From Escherichia phage BF17: DNA of 64,000 nt. The notes beneath the pieces are model-generated. The model was given only the letters and a program-made list of their open reading frames with translations. It ran no database searches and was not told the DNA's origin. The position numbers and the translations under genes were made by a program. Location: sequence record MW822008.1, one strand, 5' to 3'. This document shows, piece after piece, positions 3,257-53,651 of the stretch (positions are counted from its first letter, which is position 1; each line of letters begins with the position of its first letter).

Positions 3257-3321
3257 CTTTTTGATTCTCCATAAGAAGGGAACATTTGATGTATTTATAC
3301 GTGGGACAAAGACGTTTTTGG

Positions 3322-5245: not shown

Positions 5246-5257
5246 GGGAAATTTATT

Positions 5258-8741: not shown

Positions 8742-8752
8742 CTCCTTGTGAG

Positions 8753-8962
8753 TTAGTGCTTCTCGTTTTGTTTTTTAATTTTCTTATTAAAAGACTTAAC
8801 TAATAAGTCTCTATCAATTAGTGGCATATTAAGTAGTGTTCCGTAATCAACACTTTCCATATAAACAGAACACTCCATTAATGCAGTTTTAATATCTGAC
8901 TTATTCAACTCAAATTCCTTAAGTACTTCTTGTATTTCTTCAGGAGATGAGTGGAGAAGCAT
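8753..8962 (-). CDS. Hypothetical small protein (69 aa)
   Basis: ORF in the same unit as the upstream zinc-ribbon protein; no recognisable motif. Confidence 0.4.
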   Translation of the reverse strand: MLLHSSPEEIQEVLKEFELNKSDIKTALMECSVYMESVDYGTLLNMPLIDRDLLVKSFNKKIKKQNEKH

Positions 8963-9798: not shown

Positions 9799-9943
9799 TT
9801 TATTAAATCTCCATGTAATAAATGTCTTTGTAGTATTTATTACCAAAAAATGGGACAAATTGGACAAATGTTATAGATGGGTCTTTTTTATTCGTTATAG
9901 ATTCATAAATATTTCTATAATACATCTATTAAAAGGGAATGTT

Positions 9944-12142
9944 ATGGCTGTCAATACAAGTGATTACCTACTACAGCAGTTGGTTAATCAAACTAAAGAT
10001 AACAATGATAGTTTGACTGCTATCCGTGAGTTATTAGCTGAAAATATAAAGAATGATAAGAAAAAATCAGGTTCAAATAGTAAAAAGAATGGTTCCAGTT
10101 CCAGTTCTTCCAGTAATCGTGGAAATCGTGGAAGTGCACAAGCCGATGACGGGAAAGCATTTGGTAAATTGTTCAAATCACTATCTTCTGAAGTTTCTAA
10201 TGTAAGCAAAACAATGATGAACTCCAGTACCAACGTAAGTACTGTAGTAAACTCATTAGGCGTTAGTGCATCATCATTTGCTGGTTCATTAGCAATGATG
10301 CCAGGTCCAATTGGTGCAGCGGCAGCAGCATTTAAACTCGTTACTGGTGCTGGTCTTGCTGTATATAACGCACTTAATGCACAATTGGAAGTATATACCA
10401 GAATTAACAGTGCTGGTGTTGCATTGGCTGAAGGTTATGGTTCAGTACTGAAAGGTGCAGGTGCATCTATGTTGAGTATGGATGCATTCAGTGAAGCTCT
10501 ACAAACACATAGTTCTGTGGTAGCTCAATTGGATGGGGCATATGGTGATGGTGTTGCTACCTTTGGTAAATTATTAGGAACTGTTCAACAAGCTCAAAAT
10601 GAACTTGGCCTTTATGGTATTTCTCAAAAAACATTAACTGATTTAACTGCAAGAAACATTAAGTTCCAAAAACAATATGGTGGTCGTGAAGCTCTTCGTA
10701 GTATGGACCAAGCTAAAAGTACTGAACAATTCATCATGAGCATGACTAAATTCAGTAAAAGCATGGGTGAGTCCGTTGATGCATTACTAAACAAAACACA
10801 AAACCTAGATAAATCACTCGATACGCGTTCTATGCAAATTGCATTGCAGAACTACTCTGGACTATCCAGTAAAGCTGCTGTAGCAACATCTAAGGCGTTC
10901 AACGAAGCTGCGGGTGCAATGGGTGATGCAGGTGCAGATTTCCTCCGTTTGATATCACACAGATTGTCTATTGGTGGCGTACCGGATGACCTACTCACTC
11001 CAGTACTGAACCAGTTCGCTGATTTAGGTGAAAATCTTGTGCGTAGTGGTGTAACTGATTCACAAGAAATTCGTCGCCAACAATTAGAATTCGTTAAAAA
11101 GAATAAAGAATTAATTAAGCAAGATTTGCTTAACCAGATTCAATTAGGAAACACAACTGCTGCAACCTTCTACCAACAACTATTGGATATGGAAGCAACC
11201 GTAAATGAACCTAAAAATAATCCCGCTGATAAATTAACTCAATTTACTAACCGCTTCAATATGTGGATTAGTAAAGAATTCACTGAACCATTTAATACAA
11301 TGTATGCTAATACACAAAATTCAATTGTGGATTATCTTTCAGACATTGCAGACAGAACTGATGGTGCATGGGAGTTTATTGGGGAATTGGCTCTTGATGG
11401 ATTTGGGTTAGTACCTATTGCTAAAGATGCAATTGCTTACCTTGATCGTATTGGTGCTGAATTTACAGCTTGGTTGGATGGATTGGGTGCAGATATATTC
11501 GGTTCAGGTTACTCTAAAGTGTCAGAAGCATTTGATACCTTTATGAATAACTTAATGGATTTACCTGGTAACCTATGGAATTCTGTTAAAAGTTGGTTCG
11601 GTGGTGGTTCTGATAATGATATAAAACTCAATAACAGTACTGAAACCCCAGCAGAAAGCGTAAACAACATCATTGACAACGGTGTAAATAGTGTTAGTGA
11701 TTATTTTGCAGGGATGTGGGATAAGTTCAACAAATGGAACACCGCACGTAACTACAAAGAACCAAAACCACTACCATCTGATTATGCTGACAGTTTATTC
11801 AACCGTCCAGGAGTAGAACGTATTCGTCCTGTTATTGAAAAAACCAATAACGTTGCTCCAGAAATAACTGTATCTCGTAAAGATTTTGATAAAACTGCAT
11901 GGGCACCAGGTGAACCACCAGTTCCACCAAAACCTGACGATACAGAGGCAATTAAGAAGATGATAAATAATGGTAGTGCAGTGACATCGAGAACTGGACC
12001 ACCAGCACCGATTTCTGATGAAATGAAAGAAATACTCAAAAAGCTTGCCGATGTTAATGAACAATCACTATCTGCTGTACAACAGACAAATAATTATCTA
12101 AGAACTATCTCTGAAAACACCCAAGGTGAGAGAAACAGTTAA
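9944..12142 (+). CDS. Tape-measure-like or injected structural protein (732 aa, low-complexity, Gly/Ala/Ser-rich)
   Basis: ATG at 9944 after AAAGGGA; Ser run 'NGSSSSSSSNRG', hydrophobic Gly/Ala segment 'MMPGPIGAAAAAFKLVTGAGLAVY'; directly upstream of the portal gene. The track's longer ORF from 9737 overlaps the divergent gene. Confidence 0.35.
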   Translation: MAVNTSDYLLQQLVNQTKDNNDSLTAIRELLAENIKNDKKKSGSNSKKNGSSSSSSSNRGNRGSAQADDGKAFGKLFKSLSSEVSNVSKTMMNSSTNVSTVVNSLGVSASSFAGSLAMMPGPIGAAAAAFKLVTGAGLAVYNALNAQLEVYTRINSAGVALAEGYGSVLKGAGASMLSMDAFSEALQTHSSVVAQLDGAYGDGVATFGKLLGTVQQAQNELGLYGISQKTLTDLTARNIKFQKQYGGREALRSMDQAKSTEQFIMSMTKFSKSMGESVDALLNKTQNLDKSLDTRSMQIALQNYSGLSSKAAVATSKAFNEAAGAMGDAGADFLRLISHRLSIGGVPDDLLTPVLNQFADLGENLVRSGVTDSQEIRRQQLEFVKKNKELIKQDLLNQIQLGNTTAATFYQQLLDMEATVNEPKNNPADKLTQFTNRFNMWISKEFTEPFNTMYANTQNSIVDYLSDIADRTDGAWEFIGELALDGFGLVPIAKDAIAYLDRIGAEFTAWLDGLGADIFGSGYSKVSEAFDTFMNNLMDLPGNLWNSVKSWFGGGSDNDIKLNNSTETPAESVNNIIDNGVNSVSDYFAGMWDKFNKWNTARNYKEPKPLPSDYADSLFNRPGVERIRPVIEKTNNVAPEITVSRKDFDKTAWAPGEPPVPPKPDDTEAIKKMINNGSAVTSRTGPPAPISDEMKEILKKLADVNEQSLSAVQQTNNYLRTISENTQGERNS

Positions 12143-13964: not shown

Positions 13965-14192
13965 ATGTTAAAGGACATCTTTGAATCTAGCAGTGATTCT
14001 TTATACGACCCTGAAGATGATCAGAACGTATATAAAATTACTGATTCCAGAAAACCAAAACTAACATTACAAGTACTTAATAATTTAAGAAAGTACCGTG
14101 AATTTAAAGCTAATGAAGAACAACGACGCAAAAATGTTGTCGCTGTTGTTTATGCAGCAGCACCATCCGGTGATGGTTCAGGATTAATGTAA
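13965..14192 (+). CDS. Small protein at the gp67-like position (possible prohead core protein)
   Basis: 75 aa ORF between the portal and protease genes, acidic N-terminus; call is from synteny only. Confidence 0.3.
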   Translation: MLKDIFESSSDSLYDPEDDQNVYKITDSRKPKLTLQVLNNLRKYREFKANEEQRRKNVVAVVYAAAPSGDGSGLM

Positions 14193-14292
14193 ACAAAAAT
14201 CGCACTTTTTAAAGCTTTTAAAAATGGCGAAATTTTTCAGTACTAAATAATATCATACTTTATATGAATGTAATATATCTATGGAGGATATA

Positions 14293-15123
14293 ATGGCGAA
14301 TTTAAAACTACTACAAGAAGCAATTGAAGCGTTTGCAAACGGCGAACAAGATGTTGCTGATAAAAAAATGCGTAAGTACTTTGTTGAGCAAGCTCAAGAA
14401 ATCAATAAAGAACTAGAAGAAAGCATGGACGAAGAAGAATGTGAAGTTGAAGTCAAAGACGAAGAAAAACTTGACGAAGACTTTGATGTTCAACCAGACG
14501 CTGGTCTAAATGCTGAAATCGAATACACCCTAGGTGAAGAAGATGAAAGTGCAGAAGAAGAAGTTGAATTCTCTGCTGATGCTGATGGCGAAGAAGTTGA
14601 CGCTGAAGCAGAAGTTGGTGCAGAAGTTCCTTCCGAAGACCAATGGGAATCTATTCAAGATGCTTTCCGTGGCCTACAACAAATGTTTGACGAAATCGGC
14701 GGTGATGAAGTTGACCTAGGTTCTGAAGACGAAGTTGAAGTTGGTGCGGAAGAAGAATTCGGTGCTGATGGTGAAGAATCTGAAGACGAATTTGCTGATG
14801 TACAATTCGGTGATGAGAAAGTTGGTGAGTCTTTCAAACTTAAGCAAGTTGCTGCGGTTGATAAGAAAGAAAAAGCTGGCGTTAATACCAAGTCTCCAGT
14901 TGCTCCAGAAGCTAAATCTCCAGTTCAAGGTGTTGCTCCAGTGAAATTCGCAAAAGCTTCCGAAAAACAAGTAGATTATGATTTTGAAAACGAAGATGCT
15001 ATGTCTCACACTGATGAAGACCTAGGTAAAAATGCTCGTGGCGAAATGAAAGATGTTGCGAAGCCAAAAAATACCGCTTCTAAATCTCGTTCTCCACTAC
15101 CAAAATCACAACCAAAAATCTAA
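14293..15123 (+). CDS. Highly acidic prohead core/scaffold-like protein
   Basis: GGAGGATATA then ATG at 14293; long Glu/Asp runs; sits between portal and prohead protease as T4 gp68 does. Confidence 0.4.
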   Translation: MANLKLLQEAIEAFANGEQDVADKKMRKYFVEQAQEINKELEESMDEEECEVEVKDEEKLDEDFDVQPDAGLNAEIEYTLGEEDESAEEEVEFSADADGEEVDAEAEVGAEVPSEDQWESIQDAFRGLQQMFDEIGGDEVDLGSEDEVEVGAEEEFGADGEESEDEFADVQFGDEKVGESFKLKQVAAVDKKEKAGVNTKSPVAPEAKSPVQGVAPVKFAKASEKQVDYDFENEDAMSHTDEDLGKNARGEMKDVAKPKNTASKSRSPLPKSQPKI

Positions 15124-15154: not shown

Positions 15155-15775
15155 ATGAGTATGATTCGTGAATGGTCTTCATTCAATGATTCTAAAGTTG
15201 TTTTGGAACATCGTGATAATGGACTTGGTGGGCGTGATTGCTATCTTCGTGGTATTGCTATTCAAGCCGATCAAAGAAATTTAAATGAGAGAATTTACCC
15301 TTTAGCCGAAATTACTAAAGCTGTTAATAATATGGCTCAACGTTTGGCTAAAGGTGAAAGTATTCTAGTTGAATGTGACCACCCTGAAACACTAACAATT
15401 AACCTTGACCGTGTAGCAGCAATGATTACTAAGGTCTGGATGGAAGGTGCTAACGGCATGGCAGAAATCAAACTACTTGATACTGCTCATGGTACTAATA
15501 TTCGTAAAATGCTAGAAGCTGGTGTGAAACTTGGTGTAAGTTCTCGTGGTTCCGGTAACGTGGATTACAATGGAATAGTTTCTGATTTTGAAATTATCAC
15601 AATTGATATTGTTGCTCAACCTAGTGCTCCAGAGGCATACCCTACTGCGGTTTTTGAATCTCTGATGAGTAAGTACGGATCACCTTGTAATAGTCCTAAA
15701 AAAATCACAGAATCTAAAACAGTAAATAATGTAGATTCTGAAATTTACGATTTTTTCAAGAAATTAAAAGGTTAA
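15155..15775 (+). CDS. 21: Prohead core protease (T4 gp21 family)
   Basis: AAGGAGAT RBS; 'NERIYPLAEITKAVNNMAQRLAKGESILVECDHPE' parallels T4 gp21 'NKRLYPKRILEKAVKDYINEQVLTKQALGELNHPP'; 'VSSRGSG' block. Confidence 0.8.
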   Translation: MSMIREWSSFNDSKVVLEHRDNGLGGRDCYLRGIAIQADQRNLNERIYPLAEITKAVNNMAQRLAKGESILVECDHPETLTINLDRVAAMITKVWMEGANGMAEIKLLDTAHGTNIRKMLEAGVKLGVSSRGSGNVDYNGIVSDFEIITIDIVAQPSAPEAYPTAVFESLMSKYGSPCNSPKKITESKTVNNVDSEIYDFFKKLKG

Positions 15776-15785: not shown

Positions 15786-15793
15786 ATATAAAT
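15786..15793 (+). promoter_or_regulatory. T4-type late promoter motif TATAAATA upstream of the scaffold gene
   Basis: aaaaaTATAAATAtttg about 50 nt upstream of the ATG at 15842; a gp55-like sigma is encoded in the window. Confidence 0.4.
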
Positions 15794-15841
15794 ATTTGTA
15801 TGTTGAAGTACAGATATTTCAGTACTTAAAGGAGAGAACGA

Positions 15842-16995: not shown

Positions 16996-17003
16996 TATAA
17001 ATA
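16996..17003 (+). promoter_or_regulatory. T4-type late promoter motif TATAAATA upstream of the major capsid gene
   Basis: tttttcagttcTATAAATAatatcatact; the surrounding ~28 bp block is also found at 14231-14259. Confidence 0.45.
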
Positions 17004-17047: not shown

Positions 17048-18223
17048 ATGTCACAACTACTAAATGAATCCAAATGGGTAGCAGTTAAAGAGAAACTAGT
17101 TGAAGGTCTACAAGGTACTCGTAAGTCCGTAATGGAAACCGTACTTGATAACCATCGTAAACTAATGCTAAACGAATCTGCTACTTCTGGTGCAACCACC
17201 GCTGGTAACATCGCTACTCTAAACAAAGTGATTCTACCAATTATGCGTCGTGTTATGCCAACCGTAATCGCTAACGAAATCATCGGTGTTCAGCCAATGA
17301 CTGGCCCAGTTGGTCAGATCCACACCCTACGTGTTCAATATGCTGACAACGCTCCTGGTGTTATCGCTGGTGAAGAAATGCTTTCTCCATACAAAATCGC
17401 TAAGTCTTATACTGGTGACCTAAACGCAGACAACAGCAACCCACAAGCTGCTCCTACTAGCCAACTAGAAGGTACTATGGGTCGTCGCGTTAACATCCGT
17501 ATTCTACGTGAAACTGTTGAAGCGAAATCTCGTCGTCTATCTGCACGTTGGACTGTTGAATCTGCACAAGATGCACAATCCCAACATGGTATCGACGTTG
17601 AAGCTGAACTAATGGCTGCAATCGCTCAAGAAGTTACCGTTGAAATCGACCAAGAGCTACTAAGCCGTCTACGTGCACTACCTGGTGCTGCTGCTGTAAC
17701 TTATGACCAATCTAAAGTTACTGGTGTTGCGACCTTCGTTGGTGACGAGCACGCTGCTCTAGCTACCCTAATCAACCGTCAAGCGAACGAAGTTGCTCGT
17801 CGTACCAAACGTGGTGCTGCGAACTGGGCTGTTGTTTCTCCAACCGCTCTAACCATTCTACAGTCTGCAACTACTTCTAGTTTTGCACGTACTACTGAAG
17901 GTACTTTCGAAGCTCCAACTAACGTTAAATTTGTTGGTACTCTAAACAGCACCATGCGTATCTTCGTTGATACCTATGCAAGTGATGTTGAAGATATCCT
18001 AATTGGTTACAAAGGTAACGCTGAAACTGATGCTGGTGTGTTCTATTGCCCATACATCCCACTAATGGCTTCCGGTACTGTAATGGACCCTAACACTGGA
18101 GAACTCGTTACAACTTTCTTAACCAGATACGGGTATGTTCAGTTGACCGATAGCACCAGTTCACTAGGTAACGCTGCTGACTACTACAGTAAAATCGCTA
18201 TCAAAAACGTTACTTTCATGTAA
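17048..18223 (+). CDS. 23: Major capsid protein (T4 gp23 family, HK97-like fold)
   Basis: TAAGGAGAT RBS; 'NEIIGVQPMTGPVGQIHTLRVQY' matches the conserved gp23 'VQPMTGP' block; strong codon bias; followed by a strong terminator. Confidence 0.85.
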   Translation: MSQLLNESKWVAVKEKLVEGLQGTRKSVMETVLDNHRKLMLNESATSGATTAGNIATLNKVILPIMRRVMPTVIANEIIGVQPMTGPVGQIHTLRVQYADNAPGVIAGEEMLSPYKIAKSYTGDLNADNSNPQAAPTSQLEGTMGRRVNIRILRETVEAKSRRLSARWTVESAQDAQSQHGIDVEAELMAAIAQEVTVEIDQELLSRLRALPGAAAVTYDQSKVTGVATFVGDEHAALATLINRQANEVARRTKRGAANWAVVSPTALTILQSATTSSFARTTEGTFEAPTNVKFVGTLNSTMRIFVDTYASDVEDILIGYKGNAETDAGVFYCPYIPLMASGTVMDPNTGELVTTFLTRYGYVQLTDSTSSLGNAADYYSKIAIKNVTFM

Positions 18224-18351: not shown

Positions 18352-19458
18352 ATGCCAAAAGTAAGTATCGACAAAGAAAAATTCATTGAAGAGATGAACA
18401 ACAAGTATGGAGCATATGGTGAATTTGATTTCAGCACTTTAGTATTCAAAGCCAGTAAGACAACAGTTAAATGTAATAAATGCGGAAAAGAAAATACTAA
18501 ACCTGCACTACGTCACATTTCATGTACATGTTCTTCATGTTATTCAAACATGTCACAGCGTTCGAACAACGAAAAATTTATCAGCACGGTAGAAACTAAA
18601 TTTGGAAAAGATAAATTCAAATTTGATAAACTAAATTACATTAACGCTATAACAAAAGTAACCATACTCTGTACAGACGAAGAACATAACGATTACTTTG
18701 AAATTACACCAAACAAATTTCTTACTGGTAAGGGATGTCCTATATGTAATAAAAATGAAGCATACAGTACTGAAGAATTCGTAGAAAAAGTAAAAGAAAA
18801 TTATGGTGATTCATTAGATTTAACTAACACAGTATATGTAAATCAAAAAACTAAAGTAACTGTGTATTGTAAAGCGGGTAACCATGAATGGACAGTTGAT
18901 CCGAAAACTTTACTTGTTGGTAAAACTGGCTGCGGTACATGTTCTGGTAAAGGTGGAAGAAGCACTGAACGTTTCATTGAACTTGTGTCGCCTATCCATA
19001 ACCATAAGTATGATTATAGTTTGGTTGAATATACTATAAGCGAGAATTATGTTGATATTGTATGTCCAACTCATGGTGTTTTCTCCCAACAACCAAAAGC
19101 ACATATGGCTGGTAAAGGATGCCCATCATGTGGTGAATATGGATATCAGCCATCAAAACCTGGATATTTCTATGTTCAAAAACTAACTAATAAAGATAAG
19201 ACAGTGTACAAGTATGGAATCACTGGTGATATGAAACGCCGTGTAAATGAGCAAAGTCGTCATTCTGGTTTTGAACACACAGTACTGATAGAACGTTACT
19301 TTGAAGATGGAAATCAACCATTACTGTTGGAAAAGTTCATAAAGAAATACATTGAAAGTGGTGTTGTAAGTACTGAAGAGTTGCCATCAGGATTTACTGA
19401 AACTTTTGATGCTAAGTATCTTGAAAGTGTTTTAGAAATTGTAAATACTTTTAAGTAA
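18352..19458 (+). CDS. Zinc-ribbon-repeat protein with a C-terminal GIY-YIG/T5orf172-like nuclease domain (homing-endonuclease-like)
   Basis: Four CxxC pairs ('CNKCGKEN', 'GKGCPICN', 'GCGTCSGKGG', 'GKGCPSCGEY'); C-terminal 'GYFYVQK...YKYGITGDMKRRVNEQSRH' fits the GIY-(10-11 aa)-YIG-R pattern. Confidence 0.5.
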   Translation: MPKVSIDKEKFIEEMNNKYGAYGEFDFSTLVFKASKTTVKCNKCGKENTKPALRHISCTCSSCYSNMSQRSNNEKFISTVETKFGKDKFKFDKLNYINAITKVTILCTDEEHNDYFEITPNKFLTGKGCPICNKNEAYSTEEFVEKVKENYGDSLDLTNTVYVNQKTKVTVYCKAGNHEWTVDPKTLLVGKTGCGTCSGKGGRSTERFIELVSPIHNHKYDYSLVEYTISENYVDIVCPTHGVFSQQPKAHMAGKGCPSCGEYGYQPSKPGYFYVQKLTNKDKTVYKYGITGDMKRRVNEQSRHSGFEHTVLIERYFEDGNQPLLLEKFIKKYIESGVVSTEELPSGFTETFDAKYLESVLEIVNTFK

Positions 19459-19481
19459 ACAACCATAAGGAGTTGACACGG

Positions 19482-19832
19482 ATGTTAACTGTATACATTT
19501 TTAAGAAAGAAGAGTACTTAAAGAGTCAGTACTCAAAAATTGAGATTAACGTTCCATACGGGACTTTAGTTGGTTATGATGAAGCTAGTGAAACTTTGTA
19601 TTATAATGATGATAGACTGGACTATAGTATTGATTCATTTATTGAAGACATACTTAATAGTAACACTGAAGATATGTTGTATGAAGAATACTTAGATAAG
19701 TACAAAGAACGTATGTCAAAGTTACATGCTGATGCTCCAGTACTGAACATTTCAAAAACTCCTTCTGAATTCGAGCCACAAAACCCATTCCAACGCCTAA
19801 TTGATGCTGGGGTAAATTTCCGAATTACTTGA
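19482..19832 (+). CDS. Hypothetical protein
   Basis: AAGGAG then ATG at 19482; acidic; no recognisable motif. Confidence 0.4.
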   Translation: MLTVYIFKKEEYLKSQYSKIEINVPYGTLVGYDEASETLYYNDDRLDYSIDSFIEDILNSNTEDMLYEEYLDKYKERMSKLHADAPVLNISKTPSEFEPQNPFQRLIDAGVNFRIT

Positions 19833-19871
19833 TTAATAAATATCTTCATATTACTGATGGAGATATTTTCT

Positions 19872-20180
19872 ATGTCACAGATATGTTATGTTATAGTAAA
19901 TGATGCATGGCCTGATTATGTTAAGATAGGATTTACCAGTAAATCTGAAATGACAGAACGTTTAAGGACATATCAAACTGCTACACCTTTTAGAGATTTT
20001 GTGGTATACCATGAAGTACACTTTGAAGATGCACGTTTAGCAGAGAAAGAAATTCACAAAAGACTAAAACAAATGAACGCAGTAAGGCAACCTAACACCG
20101 AGTGGTTCAAGATGCCTAAGAAGATAGCAGCGAACATCGTTGATTCTGTTCTTGACGATATGGAAAACGACTTGCTATAG
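19872..20180 (+). CDS. T5orf172/GIY-YIG-like domain protein
   Basis: GGAG then ATG at 19872; 'YVIVNDAWPDYVKIGFT...RL...EWF' pattern typical of T5orf172-type GIY-YIG-like domains. Confidence 0.45.
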   Translation: MSQICYVIVNDAWPDYVKIGFTSKSEMTERLRTYQTATPFRDFVVYHEVHFEDARLAEKEIHKRLKQMNAVRQPNTEWFKMPKKIAANIVDSVLDDMENDLL

Positions 20181-20221
20181 TAATAAATATAGTATATATT
20201 AATCATTAAAGGGATTTATAC

Positions 20222-29796: not shown

Positions 29797-29929
29797 AAAA
29801 ATCTCCTTGTCAAATTTTGTGCAGGAACACCCTGCTTAATATTATTTATCAAAAAATATAAACCACATTTAAATTTAAGGCAATATTCCCTGATCTCTAT
29901 GATATTATTTATCAAATCTGGGAAAGTGA

Positions 29930-35164
<5,235 letters not shown>

Positions 35165-44214: not shown

Positions 44215-44271
44215 ATGAGTTCCATAAATATTAGTATAAATTTATACCTATTATTTATGGAAGGAAAAACT

Positions 44272-45249
44272 ATGGCTCATCACGGCGTGTTTATGTACCC
44301 TTATAACCAAGAAGTATCATTGGGCAATTTTAATATGCCATATAGCAATGAGAAACTTACAATATACAGAGGTGCAAATAACAATTTATCATTCACAGTG
44401 CATAACGCTGATGGAAAATATACATTACTAAAAGATAACGAATATCTAACATTCATGATTTTTGATGCTAGAAACAATACTAAATTATTCGATGTAGTTT
44501 TGGATAAACAAAAACCATCATGGCTATCAGAAAGTGGACAAGCAAGACAAACATTAGGTAATAGTAAAAAAGTATATTATGGATGTATTGTTCCTGCTGG
44601 TGTAATTCAGGATACTAGTCCTGGTTCAAAATATAGATGGAGTATTACTAAAGTAACAATGGATGGTTCCTTGATTGAACCTACACAGTACTTATACACT
44701 GGTCTTGATTATGAAGCCTCTGCTGAATTGATCATTTCCGACCAAGCTGCTCCTGTGTTTGTGCCAAGTATTGAAGTATCTGTTAATAAAAACCCAGCAT
44801 GGACTACCATCAAACGCTTGTATCATGAACCAATCGCTCGTGGCGTTATTGGTGAATTTGATATAATGGCAACATCTCCCCTTCCTGCACAAATGCAGTA
44901 CGGATTAGTTGATGGTCTTAGTACTATTGCAATGTACTTTGATAAATTCATTGGTAGAATTCAATTACAAGGATGTTTGTGTAATAACGTACCAACTGAT
45001 AACGAAAACTATAAATGGTTTATTGTTAAATTGGATGGTAAAGAATATATCGAAAATGATATTGATGAAAATGGATTCCCTAAAGCGTTAGATGGGATTC
45101 AAGCATTTAATTTTAAAGGTAATTACATGTGGTTGCGATTGGTTGTTTGTATTCATCCTAAGATCGTTCCAGTTCCTTATGACTATGCGGCAGTAAGAAA
45201 AGTCTATGACCCACTACTGTCAGTTCCTAAAATTTTGATTCGCAGGTGA
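44272..45249 (+). CDS. Hypothetical protein, possibly structural
   Basis: GGAAGGAAAAACT then ATG at 44272 (the track ORF extends upstream without RBS); 325 aa. Confidence 0.4.
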   Translation: MAHHGVFMYPYNQEVSLGNFNMPYSNEKLTIYRGANNNLSFTVHNADGKYTLLKDNEYLTFMIFDARNNTKLFDVVLDKQKPSWLSESGQARQTLGNSKKVYYGCIVPAGVIQDTSPGSKYRWSITKVTMDGSLIEPTQYLYTGLDYEASAELIISDQAAPVFVPSIEVSVNKNPAWTTIKRLYHEPIARGVIGEFDIMATSPLPAQMQYGLVDGLSTIAMYFDKFIGRIQLQGCLCNNVPTDNENYKWFIVKLDGKEYIENDIDENGFPKALDGIQAFNFKGNYMWLRLVVCIHPKIVPVPYDYAAVRKVYDPLLSVPKILIRR

Positions 45250-45266
45250 GACAAAACAAGTGTTTG

Positions 45267-45275
45267 TGCTATAAT
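45267..45275 (+). promoter_or_regulatory. Extended -10 promoter motif TGCTATAAT
   Basis: gtttgTGCTATAATcat about 30 nt upstream of the primase start. Confidence 0.4.
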
Positions 45276-46386: not shown

Positions 46387-47907
46387 ATGATTCAAAGCAC
46401 AGTGGACGTCAAACAGTATGGGATTAATGCACAACAATACTTACTATCCCAAGTTTTCAGTAATCCAGATTTATTTGTACGTTGTAAAAATATTCTAAAG
46501 CCAGAATATTTTGATAAAACATTTCATGAAAGTATTCAGTACGTTCATGATTATGCAGCAAAATATAGTTCATCCCCTACACTGAAAGATATCGAAGTGA
46601 AAGGTGGTTATCAGTATGATCATTATGAAGTACAAGAACTTCATAAACAGGCAGTACTGGATACCTGTAGTGAGTTTTGCCGTCACAAAGCTCTAGCTCT
46701 AGCAGTAGAGAAAGGTATGGAATTAGTACATCAGAAAAAATATGGTGGCATCGAAGAACTCATTCGTGAAGCTATGTTAGTATCTGTACAGAATGAGTTG
46801 GGTCTTGATATCTTTGAAAATCCAGAAGATACCATTCGTTCATTGAGCACTATGCAAGGTTCATTCAAGAGTGGATGGGAAACCCTTGACTATAAACTAT
46901 TCGGTGGTTTTGGTCGCCGTGAACTTGAAATCTTTGCAGCAGCGTCTGGTGGTGGTAAATCAGTAGTACTACAGAACTTAGCAGTTAACTTTGCTAAGGC
47001 TGGTATGAATGGTGCATACATTTCACTAGAACTAGCAGAAGAGTTGGTAGCCGTTCGTATCTATGGTATGATGACTGAATCTAAGCTAAGTAACGTTAAG
47101 AACGAAGCTGAAAAGATTGGTCTACGAGTTCAAATGGAAGGCAAGGATAGTGGTATATTGCGTATTAAACGTTTACCAGAATCCGTAACAACCACTGATG
47201 ATATTGAAAGTTATCTTCGTGAATTGCAAATTAAAATGGAAGTCAAATTAGATTATGTTTGTGTGGACTACCTTGACCTATTAACATCAAATCGTCTTGG
47301 TCCTAATGATAAATCTAATACATTTACAAAAGATAAATTTGTATCTGAAGAATTGCGTGCACTAGCAACCAAAATGGATTTGACAGTCTTCACTGCGTCA
47401 CAGTTTAACCGTAGTGGTATGGATGAAGATAAGAAAAGTCAAAGTCAGATTGCTGGTGGTATTTCTAAAATCTATACTGCGGATAACGTTATCTACATTG
47501 AAGCACGTAAAGAAACTGGCGAACTTTGGTTTGACTTCCAGAAAACACGTAACAGTAGTGCAGTTGGTTCACGTTTGCGTATGTCATATGATATCGATTC
47601 ACTTCGTGTACTAGACCACGCAACCACAATCCAACAATTCGAAACTGATGGGTCAGGATTCCGTCACAGTGGCATCTCTAAGGTCGGCGGTGGTAACATG
47701 GCAATGCCACCAAGTACAATGCAAACACTGCGTCATACGCTTTCTGGTGCTCCTAAACCAAGCACTACACCGAGTGTTGAAAGCGTAACACTAAATACAG
47801 ATAGTGATCCAATCACTTCTACACAAACTGAATCCCAGCCTCAACAGCCTCACATTGGTACTGATCGTGTAAATGCAATGAAGCAATGGTTAAATCAAAG
47901 GAAATAA
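46387..47907 (+). CDS. 41: Replicative DNA helicase (DnaB-like, T4 gp41 family)
   Basis: Walker A 'AAASGGGKS', 'DYLDLL' Walker B region, 'SQFNRSG' motif typical of DnaB-family helicases. Confidence 0.85.
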   Translation: MIQSTVDVKQYGINAQQYLLSQVFSNPDLFVRCKNILKPEYFDKTFHESIQYVHDYAAKYSSSPTLKDIEVKGGYQYDHYEVQELHKQAVLDTCSEFCRHKALALAVEKGMELVHQKKYGGIEELIREAMLVSVQNELGLDIFENPEDTIRSLSTMQGSFKSGWETLDYKLFGGFGRRELEIFAAASGGGKSVVLQNLAVNFAKAGMNGAYISLELAEELVAVRIYGMMTESKLSNVKNEAEKIGLRVQMEGKDSGILRIKRLPESVTTTDDIESYLRELQIKMEVKLDYVCVDYLDLLTSNRLGPNDKSNTFTKDKFVSEELRALATKMDLTVFTASQFNRSGMDEDKKSQSQIAGGISKIYTADNVIYIEARKETGELWFDFQKTRNSSAVGSRLRMSYDIDSLRVLDHATTIQQFETDGSGFRHSGISKVGGGNMAMPPSTMQTLRHTLSGAPKPSTTPSVESVTLNTDSDPITSTQTESQPQQPHIGTDRVNAMKQWLNQRK

Positions 47908-47910: not shown

Positions 47911-48183
47911 ATGTCTAGTAAATCCAATAAAAAGAATCTACTTGATAGTATAGTTGACTATACACCAGAGAAAGATACATTACAGAGTTTTGGTAATCGT
48001 GCAGATCATGCAATCAACTCTGTTATTCATTTATTGGAGAGTATCGAAGATGAATTTAACCAAACTGATGCTGAAGATTTGAAGAAACGTTTATTTCTTA
48101 GTATTAAGAACCGAGATTATAAAAAGTTTCAGAAGGGCTTGGAGAACATAGCACTTGATGAAAAACGTAATAAAGGGAATTGA
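47911..48183 (+). CDS. Hypothetical protein
   Basis: 90 aa ORF immediately after the helicase gene. Confidence 0.4.
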   Translation: MSSKSNKKNLLDSIVDYTPEKDTLQSFGNRADHAINSVIHLLESIEDEFNQTDAEDLKKRLFLSIKNRDYKKFQKGLENIALDEKRNKGN

Positions 48184-48184
48184 T

Positions 48185-48352
48185 ATGAAGAAGAAAACTA
48201 AACTAAAAGAAAATGCTTCTGCTGGTGCAACATCAGCAGGTGCAGTAGCATCAGTCAGTACTGGATTAAATTACCCATTACTTCGAAGAATGCCTCCTAC
48301 AAATTTCTTTGGATATAAAGTTGTTGAGACTAAAAATAAGGATAATGAATGA
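48185..48352 (+). CDS. Hypothetical small protein
   Basis: AAAGGGAATTGAT then ATG at 48185; 55 aa. Confidence 0.3.
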   Translation: MKKKTKLKENASAGATSAGAVASVSTGLNYPLLRRMPPTNFFGYKVVETKNKDNE

Positions 48353-48741
48353 AACCATATACTTTCTACACAATTAATACTGTTGTAGATATAGGTGATG
48401 GTACAACTCCAACAATCATCGATTCTAAGTTCACAGGTGCTATGAATTTGTCGAGATTGTTGGAGGCTATTATGGTACATGATTATCCCATGATGGTAAG
48501 TGTAGTAAAAACTGAAATAGATCTATATAAAGATAACAATGCATCTTTCTATAATCTTCCAGTTTCATGGGGTAAATGTACTCTTAGTACTTTCAAATTC
48601 GCAATACCAATGGATGTTGATTTGCGTTTGAATGGAATACCATTAGTTTTACCGACAGAATTAAATGGTAAAAGAATTACAAAATTTATCACAACAGGTA
48701 ATGATACAAATATTAGCATCAGCAAACAGACCTTTTCTTAA
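48349..48741 (+). CDS. Hypothetical protein
   Basis: 130 aa; start overlaps the upstream stop. Confidence 0.4.
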   Translation: MKPYTFYTINTVVDIGDGTTPTIIDSKFTGAMNLSRLLEAIMVHDYPMMVSVVKTEIDLYKDNNASFYNLPVSWGKCTLSTFKFAIPMDVDLRLNGIPLVLPTELNGKRITKFITTGNDTNISISKQTFS

Positions 48742-48798
48742 TTGTGATAAATATCATAAAGCAAGACAGAGGTCTTTTTTATTTTATATGGAGTAATT

Positions 48799-49761
48799 AT
48801 GGATATAAACCAAACAGCAGCGGAGCTACAGAAGTTTGCTGACGCACATAATTTGAATGTTGATGTTTCTGTTGTACTGGATAATATGGATGCAGGTGAT
48901 TTCATCACTTTAAATACAGCAATGGATAATTCAGATAATCGTGAAATTTTTCAAATTCTACAAAAGTACAAAGCACAAATGAGTGAAAGTTTCTCATACT
49001 TCAGTACTGACAATGTAACTAAACATATTGTTGAAAGTTCTGATTGGCATAAGACAGTTGATTCTATGACAATGAAAGACTTAGTTGAAGCATACAAAAG
49101 TAACTTCACATACTCTGATGTTTCTAAGTTGAGTATTCAAGAATTAAAAACTATTGTGTTTGAAGATTTATCCTCTAACTTGGAAAATCCTGAAAACCAA
49201 TTGAAATCTACACAGATTGCTAAGATGAATGTGTCCCAGCAACAACAGCAAGTTAATCCACAAACCCAAGCAAAACTTAAACAAGCAGAACTACAACGTA
49301 ATGCTAATAACATTAAAGTTAGCGTCCCTGGGAATCAAAGCGGTACTGATTCAATTGAACCTGTTGTTGGTATTGATGCTGGACAAAACCCACAGCAATC
49401 TTTGGTAGTAACTAAAAGTGGCACTAAGCCAAACGAATTGAATGTTTTTCCTTTGGATGATGTAACTCCAGTTGACAATCAAAATCAAAGTACTACAATT
49501 CGTGAAGAGAAATCACCACAAGAAATTAATAGTGAAGTGATGGGTGAGCCTGGTATGGAACCAGACGGTAATCCAAATTCACCATCTCCACTAACACAAC
49601 ACGCACCAGGTATGGGTGAAATGATTCATGCAATCGCTGATATCGAAAAAGAAGATGATATCTATGGTGATGAAAGTGTAATGGCAAACTCTGCACAACA
49701 AGAGAATGATGAGATGGTAGATCAAATCATTGATTTCTGTCACCGTATGCGAGGCCGATAA
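48799..49761 (+). CDS. Hypothetical protein, Gln/Asn-rich
   Basis: 320 aa; low-complexity 'QQQQQVNPQTQAKLKQAELQ' and Pro-rich segments. Confidence 0.4.
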   Translation: MDINQTAAELQKFADAHNLNVDVSVVLDNMDAGDFITLNTAMDNSDNREIFQILQKYKAQMSESFSYFSTDNVTKHIVESSDWHKTVDSMTMKDLVEAYKSNFTYSDVSKLSIQELKTIVFEDLSSNLENPENQLKSTQIAKMNVSQQQQQVNPQTQAKLKQAELQRNANNIKVSVPGNQSGTDSIEPVVGIDAGQNPQQSLVVTKSGTKPNELNVFPLDDVTPVDNQNQSTTIREEKSPQEINSEVMGEPGMEPDGNPNSPSPLTQHAPGMGEMIHAIADIEKEDDIYGDESVMANSAQQENDEMVDQIIDFCHRMRGR

Positions 49762-49979
49762 TGAGAACTGTACCTAATGTTCATGGTCACAACACTATGG
49801 TTTCCAACGAAGAATACAGACTATTACAGAAAATAAAGGCACGAGGTTCCGTGCCAGTTGAAAAAGTAAACGAATACTATCAGGAACTAGCGGATAAAAT
49901 GGTATCTCGTGGAGTCCTAAATATTGTTGAGAAAGATGACGGTACTGAAGAGTATTCAACTGTTAGGAGTAATAAATGA
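49761..49979 (+). CDS. Hypothetical small protein
   Basis: 72 aa; overlapping stop/start with neighbours. Confidence 0.35.
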   Translation: MRTVPNVHGHNTMVSNEEYRLLQKIKARGSVPVEKVNEYYQELADKMVSRGVLNIVEKDDGTEEYSTVRSNK

Positions 49980-50653
49980 ATTACGAGTACGATCAACAAT
50001 CAGTTAATCAGATGGCTGATTTGTTAAGCGGTTTGAATGACATTGAAGCTGGTGCAACCCATAATGCGTCTGGTGTTCCTTACAAGTCAGGTGGTGATAT
50101 CGGTGCAATGACCGACATTTTGACATCATTAAATGAAGCTGGTATGAATTATGGTGTTGATCCAGAACAGACACATCCACATGTTGTTCCATTCCACGCC
50201 CCATACAATGAACACATGCTTGGTCACCAACCAGCACAACCTGTTGTACAACGTGCACCTGCTAAACCTAAAACTAACTGGAGTTTAGTAGAAGAAAAAA
50301 TTCAAGGTACTAAATCAACAAAAGTATACAGTGTTAAATGTAATCATAGTTCTCAAGTTATCATGAATAATATTATGATGTATGAAGCTGCACTAACACT
50401 AGTAAACCTTCTCAACGAAGGAAGAATGTTGACAGATGCAAAAGTTCTTGGTATCATCAGTTCCGGTTTACAATACACCAATGTAATTACCGAAGCATTG
50501 AAGGCTGCACAGAAACGTCAACGTGTTCTGAATGAGTCGAAGTACGATGAAGCAAAAGATTTAGATATCATCATCGCTGAAAAGAAAGCTGAAGCATACA
50601 AACTCAAAGAGCGTGTACTGAACTTTCTAAAGAGTGAAGGTTATATAAAGTAA
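49976..50653 (+). CDS. Hypothetical protein
   Basis: 225 aa; His/Pro-rich middle segment. Confidence 0.4.
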   Translation: MNYEYDQQSVNQMADLLSGLNDIEAGATHNASGVPYKSGGDIGAMTDILTSLNEAGMNYGVDPEQTHPHVVPFHAPYNEHMLGHQPAQPVVQRAPAKPKTNWSLVEEKIQGTKSTKVYSVKCNHSSQVIMNNIMMYEAALTLVNLLNEGRMLTDAKVLGIISSGLQYTNVITEALKAAQKRQRVLNESKYDEAKDLDIIIAEKKAEAYKLKERVLNFLKSEGYIK

Positions 50654-50686
50654 ATAAATTTAGTGATATTTTATAAGGAAATTCAA

Positions 50687-51319
50687 ATGTCTAACTACAA
50701 AAAACTAATGGAATCTGCTTCACGTGTTGAAGCAATGAAGTTCATCAAATTGAACGAATCTAATATTGAGAAAGCTGAAATCGTTCTCTCTGTTAAAGGT
50801 GAAATCGTTGACAAACTACAACGTCAGTCTGAAGTAATCAATAACATGGGCGTTGACGTTCTAGGTCCACTACTTGACCGTATCAAAGCGGAACAAGGTC
50901 TTGATGCTGCACAGAACTTTAGTGATAGCGTTCGCCACCTACTTCAACATGCAGTTACTACTCTAATGGATGTTAAAGACAAAATCAGTACTGAAACTTT
51001 AAAACTAACTGGTGATATCACTGATGGTCCAGCAGTTTCTGATATTGGTAGTGAAGATGTTGATATCGACATTGCTGCTGACACCCCAACGTTCGACATG
51101 GGTGCTGATGCTGATTTCGAAGAAGATATTATTTCTGAGCCAGTACCAACTGAGCGTGAAATGAAAGAATCTGTAAAACCAACTCAAATTGGTATTAAGA
51201 TGGAAAGTGTTCGCGGTACTGTAGGTACTAAATTCTTCAAAAACAAAGAAGAAATGAAAACTTGGCTATCTGAGAACGAGAAGAAAGTTAAACGTGTACT
51301 AGGATACGTTAAAAAATAA
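50687..51319 (+). CDS. Hypothetical acidic protein
   Basis: TAAGGAAATTCAA then ATG at 50687; 210 aa. Confidence 0.4.
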   Translation: MSNYKKLMESASRVEAMKFIKLNESNIEKAEIVLSVKGEIVDKLQRQSEVINNMGVDVLGPLLDRIKAEQGLDAAQNFSDSVRHLLQHAVTTLMDVKDKISTETLKLTGDITDGPAVSDIGSEDVDIDIAADTPTFDMGADADFEEDIISEPVPTEREMKESVKPTQIGIKMESVRGTVGTKFFKNKEEMKTWLSENEKKVKRVLGYVKK

Positions 51320-51335
51320 TTAAGGATGAATCTAA

Positions 51336-51665
51336 ATGAGATTTCAAGATCTTACAGAAGAGGCTCCTGGTAAAGACATACGCAATATGATTACTACTAT
51401 TGCGTTGTCTTTAGTATCATCGGGTCGCGAAGAAGTGAACCTACAATCTTTAATCGCTGAAATCAAAAAGCGAACCAACATTGATGTTCCTTATAATGTT
51501 ATGATGGATATTCTAAACTCTTTGCCATTTGTGCAAGATGCGAATTCGGATGTTGTAACATTTACTGGTAATGATTCAGAAAGTACTGGTGAAGTTGAAC
51601 AGAACTCTGAAGACCAAGTTGAAGATTGGGCAACAAAAGCTGCTGTTGCAGCAAATAAGCAATAA
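51336..51665 (+). CDS. Hypothetical protein
   Basis: 109 aa; acidic C-terminus. Confidence 0.4.
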   Translation: MRFQDLTEEAPGKDIRNMITTIALSLVSSGREEVNLQSLIAEIKKRTNIDVPYNVMMDILNSLPFVQDANSDVVTFTGNDSESTGEVEQNSEDQVEDWATKAAVAANKQ

Positions 51666-51689
51666 AAACTGAGACAAACAAAAATACGA

Positions 51690-51698
51690 TGCTATAAT
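51690..51698 (+). promoter_or_regulatory. Extended -10 promoter motif TGCTATAAT
   Basis: cgaTGCTATAATtagg 14 nt upstream of the ATG at 51712. Confidence 0.4.
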
Positions 51699-51711: not shown

Positions 51712-52431
51712 ATGTACACACCACCAATTGTTAGCAGATATACATACGTTGATTACAAAAGAATTGAAGGCGGCCCCGAAGGTCGCCTTTATTCAACTCC
51801 AACAGGGAATCTGCCGTCAGTAACAACAATTCTTAGTGCCACCTCTGACAATGAGGGGTTGAAAAAATGGAGAGAATTTGTTGGTGAAGAGAAAGCTAAT
51901 GAGATTACATTAGAAGCATGTACTGTTGGTACTTTTATGCACGAGAACTTAGAATATCGTCTGGATGGAAAGCCAGACCACCAAGGTGGTATGCCGATAC
52001 GAGTTCTGGCCCGTAGAATGGCTGACAAAATTCAAGAAGAAGCATGGCCTAGAATCAATGAAGTGTGGGGTCAGGAAGTTCCATTATTCTATGAAGGATT
52101 ATGGGCTGGAACAACTGACTTAGTTGGAGTTCATGATGGTATTCCTTCTATCATGGACTATAAGAATTCCCGTAAATTAAAGACATGGGAACATATCGAA
52201 AATTACCGTATGCAAATCGCTGCATATGCACTATCGCATAATCAAATGTTTGGAACAAATATTGAGCGTGGTGTAATTTTCATCTGTGTAAGAAAAGATC
52301 CTAACAATTTACAATATCAAGAATTCGTTATTGAAGGAAAAGACTTCAAAGATGCGGTTGATATGTGGATTGGTAGAGTTGAACAATACTATATTTTACG
52401 TGGAGAAATTGAATCAAATGGAACAGCATAA
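51712..52431 (+). CDS. PD-(D/E)xK family nuclease (RecB/Cas4-like exonuclease fold)
   Basis: 'GTTDLVGVHDGIPSIMDYKNS' then 'QIAAYAL' fits the D...D/E-x-K core with the downstream QxxxY motif. Confidence 0.5.
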   Translation: MYTPPIVSRYTYVDYKRIEGGPEGRLYSTPTGNLPSVTTILSATSDNEGLKKWREFVGEEKANEITLEACTVGTFMHENLEYRLDGKPDHQGGMPIRVLARRMADKIQEEAWPRINEVWGQEVPLFYEGLWAGTTDLVGVHDGIPSIMDYKNSRKLKTWEHIENYRMQIAAYALSHNQMFGTNIERGVIFICVRKDPNNLQYQEFVIEGKDFKDAVDMWIGRVEQYYILRGEIESNGTA

Positions 52432-52975
52432 ACAAATGAAACAAGACCTATATACAATTCGTGCACTAGAAAGTAAAGGTTACGCCTTAGATGAAGTAAT
52501 CAAACTAAGTGATGAAGAAATTGACAAACTACAACTTTCAAATAAACTTTTAGTTAATATTAAAGATTATAAATCTCGCGGTGCAAAACCAGTAGAAGTA
52601 ATCAAAGAGAAAATTGCTGAAGATATTAGTGTTGACGAAGTATCTCGTAATGTTGCACCAGAAGTAATCGAATCATATGTAGTAGATACTGAAGAACAAA
52701 TTAAAGTATCTGAAGAAGTACAAGTAATCGCTGAAGAACTAGCACCTGTTGTTGAAGAAGAAGACGTTGTTGTTATTGAACGTGTTGAAGCTTCAAAAGA
52801 AGATTTGGATATTATCAAAGAAGCACTAAAAACCAAAGAACTAAAAAGTGTTGCAAACTATGTAAAACACTTGAAATCCCTAGTTCCTGAATCAATTCTT
52901 TCTTCCGTTGATAGCTCTGTTGTATCTCAACTAATCAATGAGCGTATTGCTGAAGTTAAAGAAAACGCTAAATAA
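52418..52975 (+). CDS. Hypothetical acidic protein
   Basis: Start uncertain (ATG at 52418 or 52436); Glu/Val-rich repeats 'EEVQVIAEELAPVVEEEDVVVIERVE'. Confidence 0.35.
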   Translation: MEQHKQMKQDLYTIRALESKGYALDEVIKLSDEEIDKLQLSNKLLVNIKDYKSRGAKPVEVIKEKIAEDISVDEVSRNVAPEVIESYVVDTEEQIKVSEEVQVIAEELAPVVEEEDVVVIERVEASKEDLDIIKEALKTKELKSVANYVKHLKSLVPESILSSVDSSVVSQLINERIAEVKENAK

Positions 52976-53003: not shown

Positions 53004-53585
53004 ATGGCACAACAACAAATTGCGTTACAGCAAGTAAGAACTGGTAAGCAACGTGACTTACCAGACGCGTTGGAAAAAGGCCAGATAGGATTCAGTACTG
53101 ATGTGGGTCGTGTATTCATCGGCCTACCTTCCTCATCAGACCCAGCAAGCTTAGTTGCTGGGCGTACATGGGAAACTGATCCAAACTCTGGTAAAGAGAA
53201 CGTGGAAATAATTACCGAATTCTCACCGTGGAGAACGGTATCCAAAATCATCAACCGTCCATTTGAAGTAGACATTCCACAAAACCAAGAGAGTGTTGAA
53301 GTTATTATTGAAAGTGAAAGTCGTGTATTCATCGACTACATCGCGTATAATAGCAATGAGACTATTTTAGAATCAGGCACAGTGCAAATTGTTGCTGCTG
53401 GTTCTTCAACTATGATTGCACAGTCAAATAACACAAGCCGTACTGATGCAATTTTATCTATTCTGTTTAGTAATCCAGTTTATGATTCAAGTACTGGAAA
53501 TATGCAATTTGACATAGTTAATGCGGATTATTTAAATTCAGGATACCACATAGAATTTGTATATCGTGGGTGGGACAAACCTTAA
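53004..53585 (+). CDS. Hypothetical protein
   Basis: 193 aa with GGAG RBS; no recognisable motif. Confidence 0.4.
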   Translation: MAQQQIALQQVRTGKQRDLPDALEKGQIGFSTDVGRVFIGLPSSSDPASLVAGRTWETDPNSGKENVEIITEFSPWRTVSKIINRPFEVDIPQNQESVEVIIESESRVFIDYIAYNSNETILESGTVQIVAAGSSTMIAQSNNTSRTDAILSILFSNPVYDSSTGNMQFDIVNADYLNSGYHIEFVYRGWDKP

Positions 53586-53606
53586 AAGGCGTCCCGCCTT
53601 TTTCTT
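53585..53606 (+). terminator. Intrinsic terminator
   Basis: aAGGCGtccCGCCTttttctt. Confidence 0.55.
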
Positions 53607-53651
53607 CCACAAAATTTAAGAACTGTATAAACAATATAACAAGGATGACAC

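Follow-up and report, generated by a model that had tools for sequence, protein, structure and literature searches.

In bacteriophage T4, the core and internal proteins of the head carry a capsid-targeting leader and obey an L/I-x-E cleavage rule. In phiKZ, the proteins of the inner body, according to what Thomas and colleagues are said to have described in 2012, are clustered, packaged in the virion and processed by the protease of the head, which cuts after Glu. An inner body measuring 91 x 18 nm and phiKZ-like in bubblegrams has been seen in the heads of phAPEC6 and 121Q, and RCC1-like proteins were put forward as candidates for it by the phAPEC6 authors. Both belong to the RaK2/121Q-like jumbo phages, which are candidates for phage therapy, and whose heads hold, besides the inner body, densities revealed by cryo-electron microscopy (cryo-EM) to which no genes are assigned. 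The present analysis concerns a block of eight genes, called here o1 to o8, found at positions 47911-51665 of a stretch of 64,000 nucleotides (nt) of Escherichia phage BF17 (record MW822008.1). This stretch, referred to below as the window, comes from an Asteriusvirus (121Q/PBECO4/RaK2-like), within the RaK2-like group of jumbo myoviruses with genomes of ~350 kb.

The databases already contain the genes, whose products are entered as conserved hypothetical proteins or as 'virion structural' ones. What is new here is the recognition of the block as core and not accessory, the late-promoter assignment, the relationship between o2 and the capsid protein, and two structural models. We propose that the block forms a core module, expressed late in part, whose small proteins mostly end up in the virus particle, likely inside the head, and in which o2, o7 and o8 are cut by a gp21-type protease; the evidence described below gives this reading, taken as a whole, about an even chance of being correct.

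Results

Organization and conservation of the block

The eight genes are all located on the + strand, code for proteins of 55-320 amino acids (aa), and fill the interval between a DnaB/T4 gp41-type replicative helicase (46387..47907, + strand; Pfam DnaB_C 4.1e-17; phrog_19 2.3e-68) and a PD-(D/E)xK (RecB/Cas4-like) exonuclease (51712..52431, + strand; PDDEXK_1 4e-4; phrog_298 3e-62), tightly packed as a preliminary description of the sequence had reported them. They are o1 (47911..48183, 90 aa), o2 (48185..48352, 55 aa from its ATG), o3 (48349..48741, 130 aa), o4 (48799..49761, 320 aa), o5 (49761..49979, 72 aa), o6 (49976..50653, 225 aa), o7 (50687..51319, 210 aa from its ATG) and o8 (51336..51665, 109 aa). 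For o2 and o7, the mechanically defined open reading frames (ORFs) begin at TTG 48155 and GTG 50663, respectively; the ATG starts match those of all annotated relatives, as well as ribosome-binding sites. The helicase stop codon lies 3 nt upstream of the o1 start, the following junctions, from o1 to o8, measure +1, -4, +57, -1, -4, +33 and +16 nt, and a Shine-Dalgarno sequence is found at most of the eight starts. No credible ORF is present on the opposite strand of the block. The preliminary description had also pointed to a Gln/Asn/Pro-rich product of 48799-49761 and to several acidic proteins. Both features are borne out: these three residues make up 22% of o4 overall and 35% of its residues 131-260, and o4, o7 and o8 are acidic, with isoelectric points (pI) of 4.4, 4.9 and 4.2; o2 is basic and the other proteins are near neutral.

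When compared with PBECO4, the eight genes show ratios of nonsynonymous to synonymous substitution rates (dN/dS) of 0.007-0.10, in the range of the neighbouring primase (0.038), helicase (0.059) and nuclease (0.063) genes, and they are therefore real genes under strong purifying selection. The GC content of the block, 0.31-0.41, is similar to that of its flanks.

Synteny was examined in 12 loci, from Asteriusvirus, Alcyoneusvirus, Mimasvirus, Eneladusvirus, Xanthomonas and Vibrio phages and from one metagenomic contig. The relatives compared were PBECO4, 121Q, phAPEC6, JP4, CBB, GAP32, XbC2, RaK2, BF, fHe-Yen9-04, 7t3 and XaC1, together with a Vibrio phage and a deep metagenomic relative with a helicase 50% identical to that of the window (L017). 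In all of them the order primase, helicase, o1 to o8, exonuclease, o10, o11, NrdA is shared, and the sole departures from collinearity are insertions in RaK2 and XaC1, an o7 extended at its N-terminus in two cases (the Vibrio phage and L017), and the absence of o3 from L017. Over the block, identity reaches 99.6% with Escherichia phage Turkey3 and ~83% with PBECO4, 121Q and phAPEC6. Between the window and other genera, amino acid identity is 65-77% for o1, o3 and o8, 58-66% for o7 and 38-56% for o4, o5 and o6, to be compared with 63-70% for the helicase; in XaC1 and in the Vibrio phage it is lower for o1, o3, o7, o8 and the helicase alike. The o3 and o7 families count 73 phage records each, all within the RaK2/121Q-like clade. 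Judged by gene order and by sequence identity, the block belongs to the core of the RaK2/121Q-like jumbo phages, as a module specific to their clade.

The insertions occupy fixed junctions, at which the otherwise conserved block accepts additional genes. In RaK2 (locus L007), a 578-aa homing endonuclease gene (hef, 8291-10024) separates o6 from o7 and ORF130 (5394-5777) follows o1, and in XaC1 (locus L009) a gene for a 229-aa protein (5143-5832) is found between o1 and o2. The o7 homologue, 210 aa long in BF17, is larger in distant relatives, with 299 aa in Vibrio phage 2.275.O (L008, 8816-9715), where the added length is N-terminal, and 445 aa in L017 (9979-11316).

Family membership and detection in virions

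Scans of all eight proteins against Pfam, NCBIfam and PADLOC gave nothing significant: matches to DUF2621, EnY2 and PsaE, and that of o4 to Pol III delta (17 bits), are sub-threshold noise, and PADLOC models produced zero matches at E <= 0.1. Likewise, alignment profiles of o3, o4, o5, o6 and o7 found no match among all PDB sequences, so that neither curated domain families nor, for these five, proteins of known structure indicate a biochemical function. All eight proteins are, on the other hand, full-length members of PHROG families, with E-values from 1e-32 to 1e-157. Six of the families are labelled 'virion structural protein': 11854 (o1, 2e-44), 14976 (o3), 14883 (o4, 1e-157), 16215 (o5), 14154 (o7) and 15050 (o8, 4e-62); the remaining two, 17311 (o2) and 16179 (o6, 3e-104), are of unknown function. 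The phrog_14154 profile is 771 positions long, and o7 spans positions 17-195 only. The absence of any assignable motif, as stated in the preliminary description, thus holds for curated domains and, in the five proteins compared, for solved structures, and fails for families; the assignment to known families is a weak one, as the PHROG label records a place of detection and carries no mechanism.

For o1, o3, o7 and o8, the label goes back to published mass spectrometry (MS) of virions of related phages. In CBB virions, analyzed by electrospray ionisation tandem MS (ESI-MS/MS), the orthologues of o1 (CBB_292, 1 peptide), o3 (CBB_294, 4 peptides, 33% coverage), o7 (10 peptides, 36% coverage) and o8 (CBB_299, 2 peptides) were found (PMC5259590 Table 4), and the o7 orthologue is marked as detected also in GAP32 and RaK2 virions (supplement of PMC5259590). 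In phAPEC6 virions, gp182c, which corresponds to o8 when mapped through the phAPEC6 locus, was identified by 1 peptide (PMC7247149 Table 1). The o7 orthologue of JP4 (JP4_380 = JP4_CDS0010) was identified by 3 peptides, with an abundance of 2.2e7, similar in magnitude to that of several tail and virion proteins. For o4 and o5, the label derives from the GenBank record of 121Q, where gp24, gp25, gp27 and gp28 (o4, o5, o7 and o8) are annotated as 'structural protein' without a documented experiment; the 121Q paper describes no MS behind these annotations.

The o7 protein is therefore reported from five phages, by MS in CBB, GAP32, RaK2 and JP4 and by annotation in 121Q. Protein by protein, support for presence in whole virions, on which the MS was made, is strong for o7 and moderate for o3; that for o1 and o8 is weak, and that for o4 and o5 is limited to annotation. 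Primase and helicase are absent from every one of these published virion proteomes.

Late-promoter motif upstream of o4

The longest spacer of the block, between o3 and o4, contains a candidate T4-type late promoter, GATAAATA (48746..48753, + strand). Its ATAAATA core (48747-48753), located 52 nt upstream of o4, is the 7-mer core of the T4 late promoter TATAAATA. The exact TATAAATA sequence is found in the window just upstream of the scaffold and major capsid protein (MCP) genes; inside the block, only the 7-mer core is present.

The distribution of ATAAATA was analyzed over the whole window, where it is under-represented (19 copies, compared with 28 +/- 5 expected). For 14 of the 19 copies, a start codon of the same strand follows at a distance of 21-71 nt, and in 12 of these cases the distance is 36-54 nt; the enrichment has a binomial P of 2.5e-15 when copies within 90 nt upstream of starts are counted. 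Morphogenesis or virion genes follow 11 of these 14 copies; the genes behind the motif are mainly those for MCP, scaffold, tape measure, hub, tail fibre and other virion proteins, and include o4. Examples of such sites are found at 15788-15794, 16997-17003, 9905-9911, 20183-20189, 33824-33830 and 44224-44230 on the + strand and at 3292-3298, 9834-9840 and 29843-29849 on the minus strand. The window also has, at about 3388-4227, an annotated gene for a late sigma factor of the gp55 type.

Alignment of the o3-o4 spacers showed that ATAAATA is kept in relatives, and in L017 a canonical TATAAATA is found at the corresponding place, 33 nt upstream of the o4 homologue. The genes annotated as structural in 121Q (o4, o5, o7 and o8) are exactly those placed behind the o4 motif, o6 excepted. 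Transcription of o4 to o8 would accordingly be late, together with the structural genes, if the motif is used as in T4. No RNA sequencing or other transcript data on any Asteriusvirus turned up.

A different type of element was found at two places by consensus scan. A sigma-70-like promoter, GAGACA-N16-TATAAT with a TG extension (51671..51698, + strand), marks the start of the next unit, that of the exonuclease, and a near-identical element is located at 45248-45275, just upstream of the primase gene; the two may represent a shared early or middle promoter type. In the sigma-70 and terminator scans, the numbers of sites were no higher than in shuffled sequence. As there is no spacer after the helicase gene, and a sigma-70-like promoter at 45248-45275, o1 to o3 probably ride on the primase-helicase transcript. 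The block would thus be split in two, o1-o3 and o4-o8, the latter having a late-promoter motif of their own.

Relationship between o2 and the capsid maturation segment

Each block protein was compared, by profile screening, with the other block proteins and with 12 other proteins of the window. The only pair above noise was that of o2 and MCP; paralogy among the eight proteins, or between them and other virion proteins of the window, was rejected in every other case. Residues 2-39 of o2 (KKKTKLKE/NASAGATSAGAVASVSTGLNYPLLRRMPPT; here and below, the slash marks the position of a possible cut) align to residues 36-72 of MCP (HRKLMLNE/SATSGATTAGNIATLNKVILPIMRRVMPT), with an E-value of 3e-7 by BLASTP and a probability of 90.5% by hhalign (E 1.4e-6). 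The aligned stretch comprises an h-x-E cleavage context (h, hydrophobic residue), a run rich in Ser, Gly, Ala and Thr, and a P-h-h-R-R-h-x-P motif.

In the capsid protein, which matches Pfam Gp23 (9.5e-90), this segment (17153..17263, + strand) includes the predicted gp21-type cleavage site LNE43/S44. In gp23-type capsid proteins it is here that the gp21 protease cuts, after L/I-x-Glu, and that the N-terminal arm begins. A cut at LNE43/S44 would leave a mature protein of 37.3 kDa, in agreement with the shift from 42.2 to 37 kDa reported for 121Q (PMC5646251 Table 1).

When 1.84 billion representative proteins were searched exhaustively, about ten real clusters were obtained for o2, with members of 49-147 aa, all of which keep a hydrophobic-x-Glu directly before the conserved core; one other member of the family aligns to MCP (E = 2e-7). 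On this comparison, o2 is best described as a miniature paralogue of the N-terminal segment of MCP, spanning the predicted maturation site, and its own cleavage is predicted after MKKKTKLKE. It is not itself a capsid protein: at 55 aa, and unlike gp23-family MCPs, it is without the entire HK97-fold body, has no Pfam match and aligns to residues 36-72 of MCP only. No published precedent was found for a stand-alone copy of a capsid N-arm such as o2.

Head-processing context

The head genes of the window include those for portal, a gp21-family protease, scaffold and a gp23-family MCP. The protease, of the T4 gp21 prohead type, is encoded at 15155..15775 (+ strand; Pfam Peptidase_S77, PF03420, 8e-21). 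Besides the h-x-E of o2, likewise at residues 7-9, a conserved [L/I/M]-x-Glu occurs at residues 7-9 of o7 (MSNYKKLME/SAS) and o8 (MRFQDLTE/EAP), and similar N-termini are found in proteins of the head module of the window (MLKDIFE/SSS, ...LKLLQE/AIE and MSKLEKLLKE/SSLS). The motif is compatible with processing; as a stand-alone proof of it, however, an N-terminal [LIVM]-x-E was rejected, being carried by 18 of the 77 ORFs of the window (23%).

The published CBB peptides are uninformative on cleavage: the search in the MS supplement was fully tryptic, and it does not contain the N-terminal peptides of MCP and o2 that were looked for.

The other proteins of the block

The most conserved gene of the block is o1, with a dN/dS of 0.007 and 70-77% identity across genera; it is translationally coupled to the helicase, and, its virion evidence being weak, it could equally be a helicase partner.

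Structure prediction had been suggested in the preliminary description, and models were obtained for o3 and o7, neither of which has a significant fold match in the PDB. The AlphaFold2 model of o3 (predicted local distance difference test, pLDDT, 89.7; predicted template modelling score, pTM, 0.80) is a compact alpha/beta domain, for which the best Foldseek match to the PDB has an E of 0.19, with a faint PII/ferredoxin-like resemblance only; all its BFVD matches are uncharacterised jumbo-phage proteins, one of them from Atu_ph07. The AlphaFold2 model of o7 (mean pLDDT 68) consists of a short N-terminal helix, an antiparallel helical hairpin of ~100 residues, an acidic disordered linker of ~55 residues and a small, basic beta-beta-alpha-beta domain at the C-terminus. 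Foldseek against the PDB returned generic antiparallel coiled coils only (best E 0.29). Besides the N-terminal KLME/SAS, an invariant REMKE/S precedes the C-terminal domain. As modelled, the build of o7 resembles that of scaffold and core proteins, and that of no known enzyme. A UniRef entry named 'Prohead core scaffold protein' and a similar N-terminus had hinted at homology of o7 to the scaffold; this was rejected, with an hhalign probability of 0.05%.

The o4 protein has a conserved N-terminal domain, the Gln/Asn/Pro-rich middle and a conserved C-terminal tail (..IIDFC.RMRGR). In o5, a VSNEE motif is invariant; the protein is a candidate winged-helix DNA-binding protein, on the basis of a published HHpred match to the BlaI repressor (2P7C_B, 93.8% probability, E 0.59; fEgEco12 supplement), which was not confirmed by the Pfam scan or by the PDB profile search, both negative. 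The N-terminal half of o6 is variable, its C-terminal half conserved and helical; a homologue search found members in the same clade only, with no named protein and no domain. In o8, an N-terminal [LI]-T-E motif (E8 invariant) and a central domain are conserved.

Neighbouring genes

Two ORFs between portal and prohead protease, both with an N-terminal h-x-E, are likely to code for prohead core proteins: 13965-14192 (75 aa, MLKDIFE/SSS...) and 14281-15123 (280 aa, very acidic), the latter detected in phAPEC6 virions as gp228c. Genes 67 and 68 of T4 occupy the same place, between portal and prohead protease.

Past the exonuclease are found o10 (52418-52975), for an acidic protein of 185 aa, and o11 (53004-53585), for a protein of 193 aa present in virions of phAPEC6 (gp179c), JP4 (JP4_384) and CBB; the latter is annotated as 'hyaluronidase' in fEgEco12 and has a weak match to Mtd_N (E 0.03). 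A GC-rich hairpin followed by a T-run (53586-53610), located right after o11, is terminator-like for the unit and was not called by the terminator scan. Just upstream of the primase, 44272-45249 codes for a protein of 325 aa, has an ATAAATA of its own at -48, and is well supported as a virion protein (phAPEC6 gp192c, 7 peptides, 32% coverage), so that the replication module contains a further structural gene.

Two further observations concern the structural genes. The large terminase (32183-33827) is represented, in the annotated relative closest to BF17, by two ORFs that overlap, named 'terminase large subunit A' and 'B', which suggests a split, frameshifted or intron-interrupted gene. Directly downstream of the MCP gene, 18352-20180 contains endonuclease and homing-endonuclease genes, mobile elements placed beside the most conserved structural gene.

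Discussion

In the mechanism that we propose, the proteins of the module would be taken into the prohead, where o2, o7 and o8 would be trimmed by the gp21-type protease after the conserved N-terminal [L/I/M]-x-Glu, in the manner of T4 internal and core proteins. The proteins would then remain with the DNA inside the head, where they may contribute to the 'inner body' known from 121Q and phAPEC6, and might be ejected alongside the DNA, with o5 binding packaged or entering DNA. A role limited to assembly is possible for o2 and o6, and o2 may serve the protease as a decoy or take the place of the N-arm of the capsid protein. Four points favour a location inside the head: o2 is tied to the MCP maturation site, a gp21-type protease is encoded, o7 is built like a scaffold protein, and the heads of 121Q and phAPEC6 contain an inner body to which no genes are assigned. 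A more specific version, in which the block is the inner-body set of these phages, internal to the head and ejected with the 350-kb genome, with a packaged o5 and with o2 as an assembly factor of a kind not described before (decoy or regulator of the gp21-type protease, or filler of N-arm binding sites in the shell), appears distinctly unlikely.

Several points weigh against a head-internal module. The virion MS was made on whole particles, and a position in the head, as opposed to the tail, the neck or surface fibres, is what we infer. The o4 promoter is predicted from a motif, and [LIVM]-x-E at three of eight N-termini is, given its frequency in the window, not significant alone. No similarity to T4 internal or phiKZ inner-body proteins was found, in sequence or, for o3 and o7, in fold. 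Neither o2 nor o6 is reported in any virion proteome, the evidence is thin where o1 is concerned (1 peptide), as it is with o8 (1-2 peptides), o4 and o5 depend on the undocumented 121Q annotation, and JP4 and phAPEC6 each yielded a single block protein. Moreover, the phAPEC6 virion preparations held SSB, a RecA-like protein, topoisomerase and thymidylate synthase (ThyA) (PMC7247149), so that some carry-over of DNA-associated proteins is possible.

Carry-over of this kind is central to an explanation by which the block would code for accessory factors of replication or recombination (a helicase loader or partner, DNA-binding proteins), co-expressed with primase and helicase and present in virion preparations through sticking to DNA. 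It suits the place of the genes between helicase and exonuclease, the o1 gene immediately behind that of the helicase and more conserved than it, the lack of a terminator between primase, helicase and o1-o3 downstream of a sigma-70-like promoter, the low peptide numbers of o1 and o8, and the absence from these phages of a gp59-type helicase loader (PMC5259590). Applied to the whole block we think it unlikely, since it does not account for the finding of o7, with up to 10 peptides, in virions of several phages studied by independent laboratories, whereas primase and helicase were never detected there; in addition, the late-promoter motif of structural genes precedes o4 and is kept in relatives, and o2 is related to a capsid protein, not to a replication protein. 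For o1 individually, and perhaps for o3 and o6, a role as replication factor is plausible.

If the virion data are taken at face value, the proteins could instead be external or tail-associated, as capsid or tail 'hairs', whiskers or their anchors, decoration proteins, neck proteins or tail assembly factors. MS of whole virions would detect them equally, a late promoter suits any structural role, and cryo-EM densities without a gene include capsid fibres, a second shell layer, a vertex protein and tail hairs. Such a location is also improbable in our judgement: these are small, acidic proteins with disordered parts, in which fibre, Ig-like and beta-helix features are lacking, as are fold matches to decoration, neck or tail proteins, the block is kept also in relatives not described as hairy, and the link of o2 to the capsid maturation site, together with the gp21-type motifs, points to the prohead interior. 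The preliminary description had seen in the block the character of an accessory region inside a replication module; on such a view it would be an accessory or 'moron' region of dispensable, fast-evolving genes for host takeover or anti-defence. Small ORFs without a curated family, and the tolerance for insertions seen in RaK2 (homing endonuclease and ORF130) and XaC1 (229-aa gene), are what such a region would show. Comparison with related genomes overturns this view, gene order and content being fixed across the clade, in all relatives examined, with dN/dS of 0.007-0.10 and identity equal to that of core replication genes such as the helicase; with a GC content like that of the flanks, no PADLOC match and proteins detected in virions, it is hardly credible.

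A head-internal, partly late module does not overturn current understanding, and is offered as a modest, testable lead. A fixed set of eight genes, in part behind a late-promoter motif and with repeatedly detected virion proteins, makes a short list of testable candidates for the densities without assigned genes; o2 is a small, concrete new observation on possible control of maturation in a T4-type head; and ATAAATA, where it precedes start codons by ~35-55 nt, is of practical use in annotating 350-kb genomes of this kind, which are poorly annotated.

The comparison with known systems gives a mixed picture. The inner-body proteins of phiKZ are mutually paralogous, whereas the eight proteins of BF17 are not; in phAPEC6, no protein resembling those of the phiKZ inner body was found. 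To the core and internal proteins of T4 (IPI-III, Alt, gp67 and gp68) the block proteins have no Pfam or PHROG match, nor, for o3 and o7, a Foldseek match; most of the T4 internal proteins are basic, in contrast to the acidic o4, o7 and o8, and in BF17 cleavage and head location are both predictions. The likeness to the T4 proteins is one of setting and general build. Both phages have a gp21-family protease and a gp23-family capsid protein, and in both small, often acidic or disordered proteins are present in virions. In o2, o7 and o8, a putative short N-terminal leader ending in [L/I/M]-x-Glu, although this motif is not statistically distinctive in the window, resembles the capsid-targeting leader of T4, and a late-type promoter motif is found upstream, in BF17 in front of o4. 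Finally, like the ip genes and alt of T4, the block is placed apart from the main cluster of head genes.

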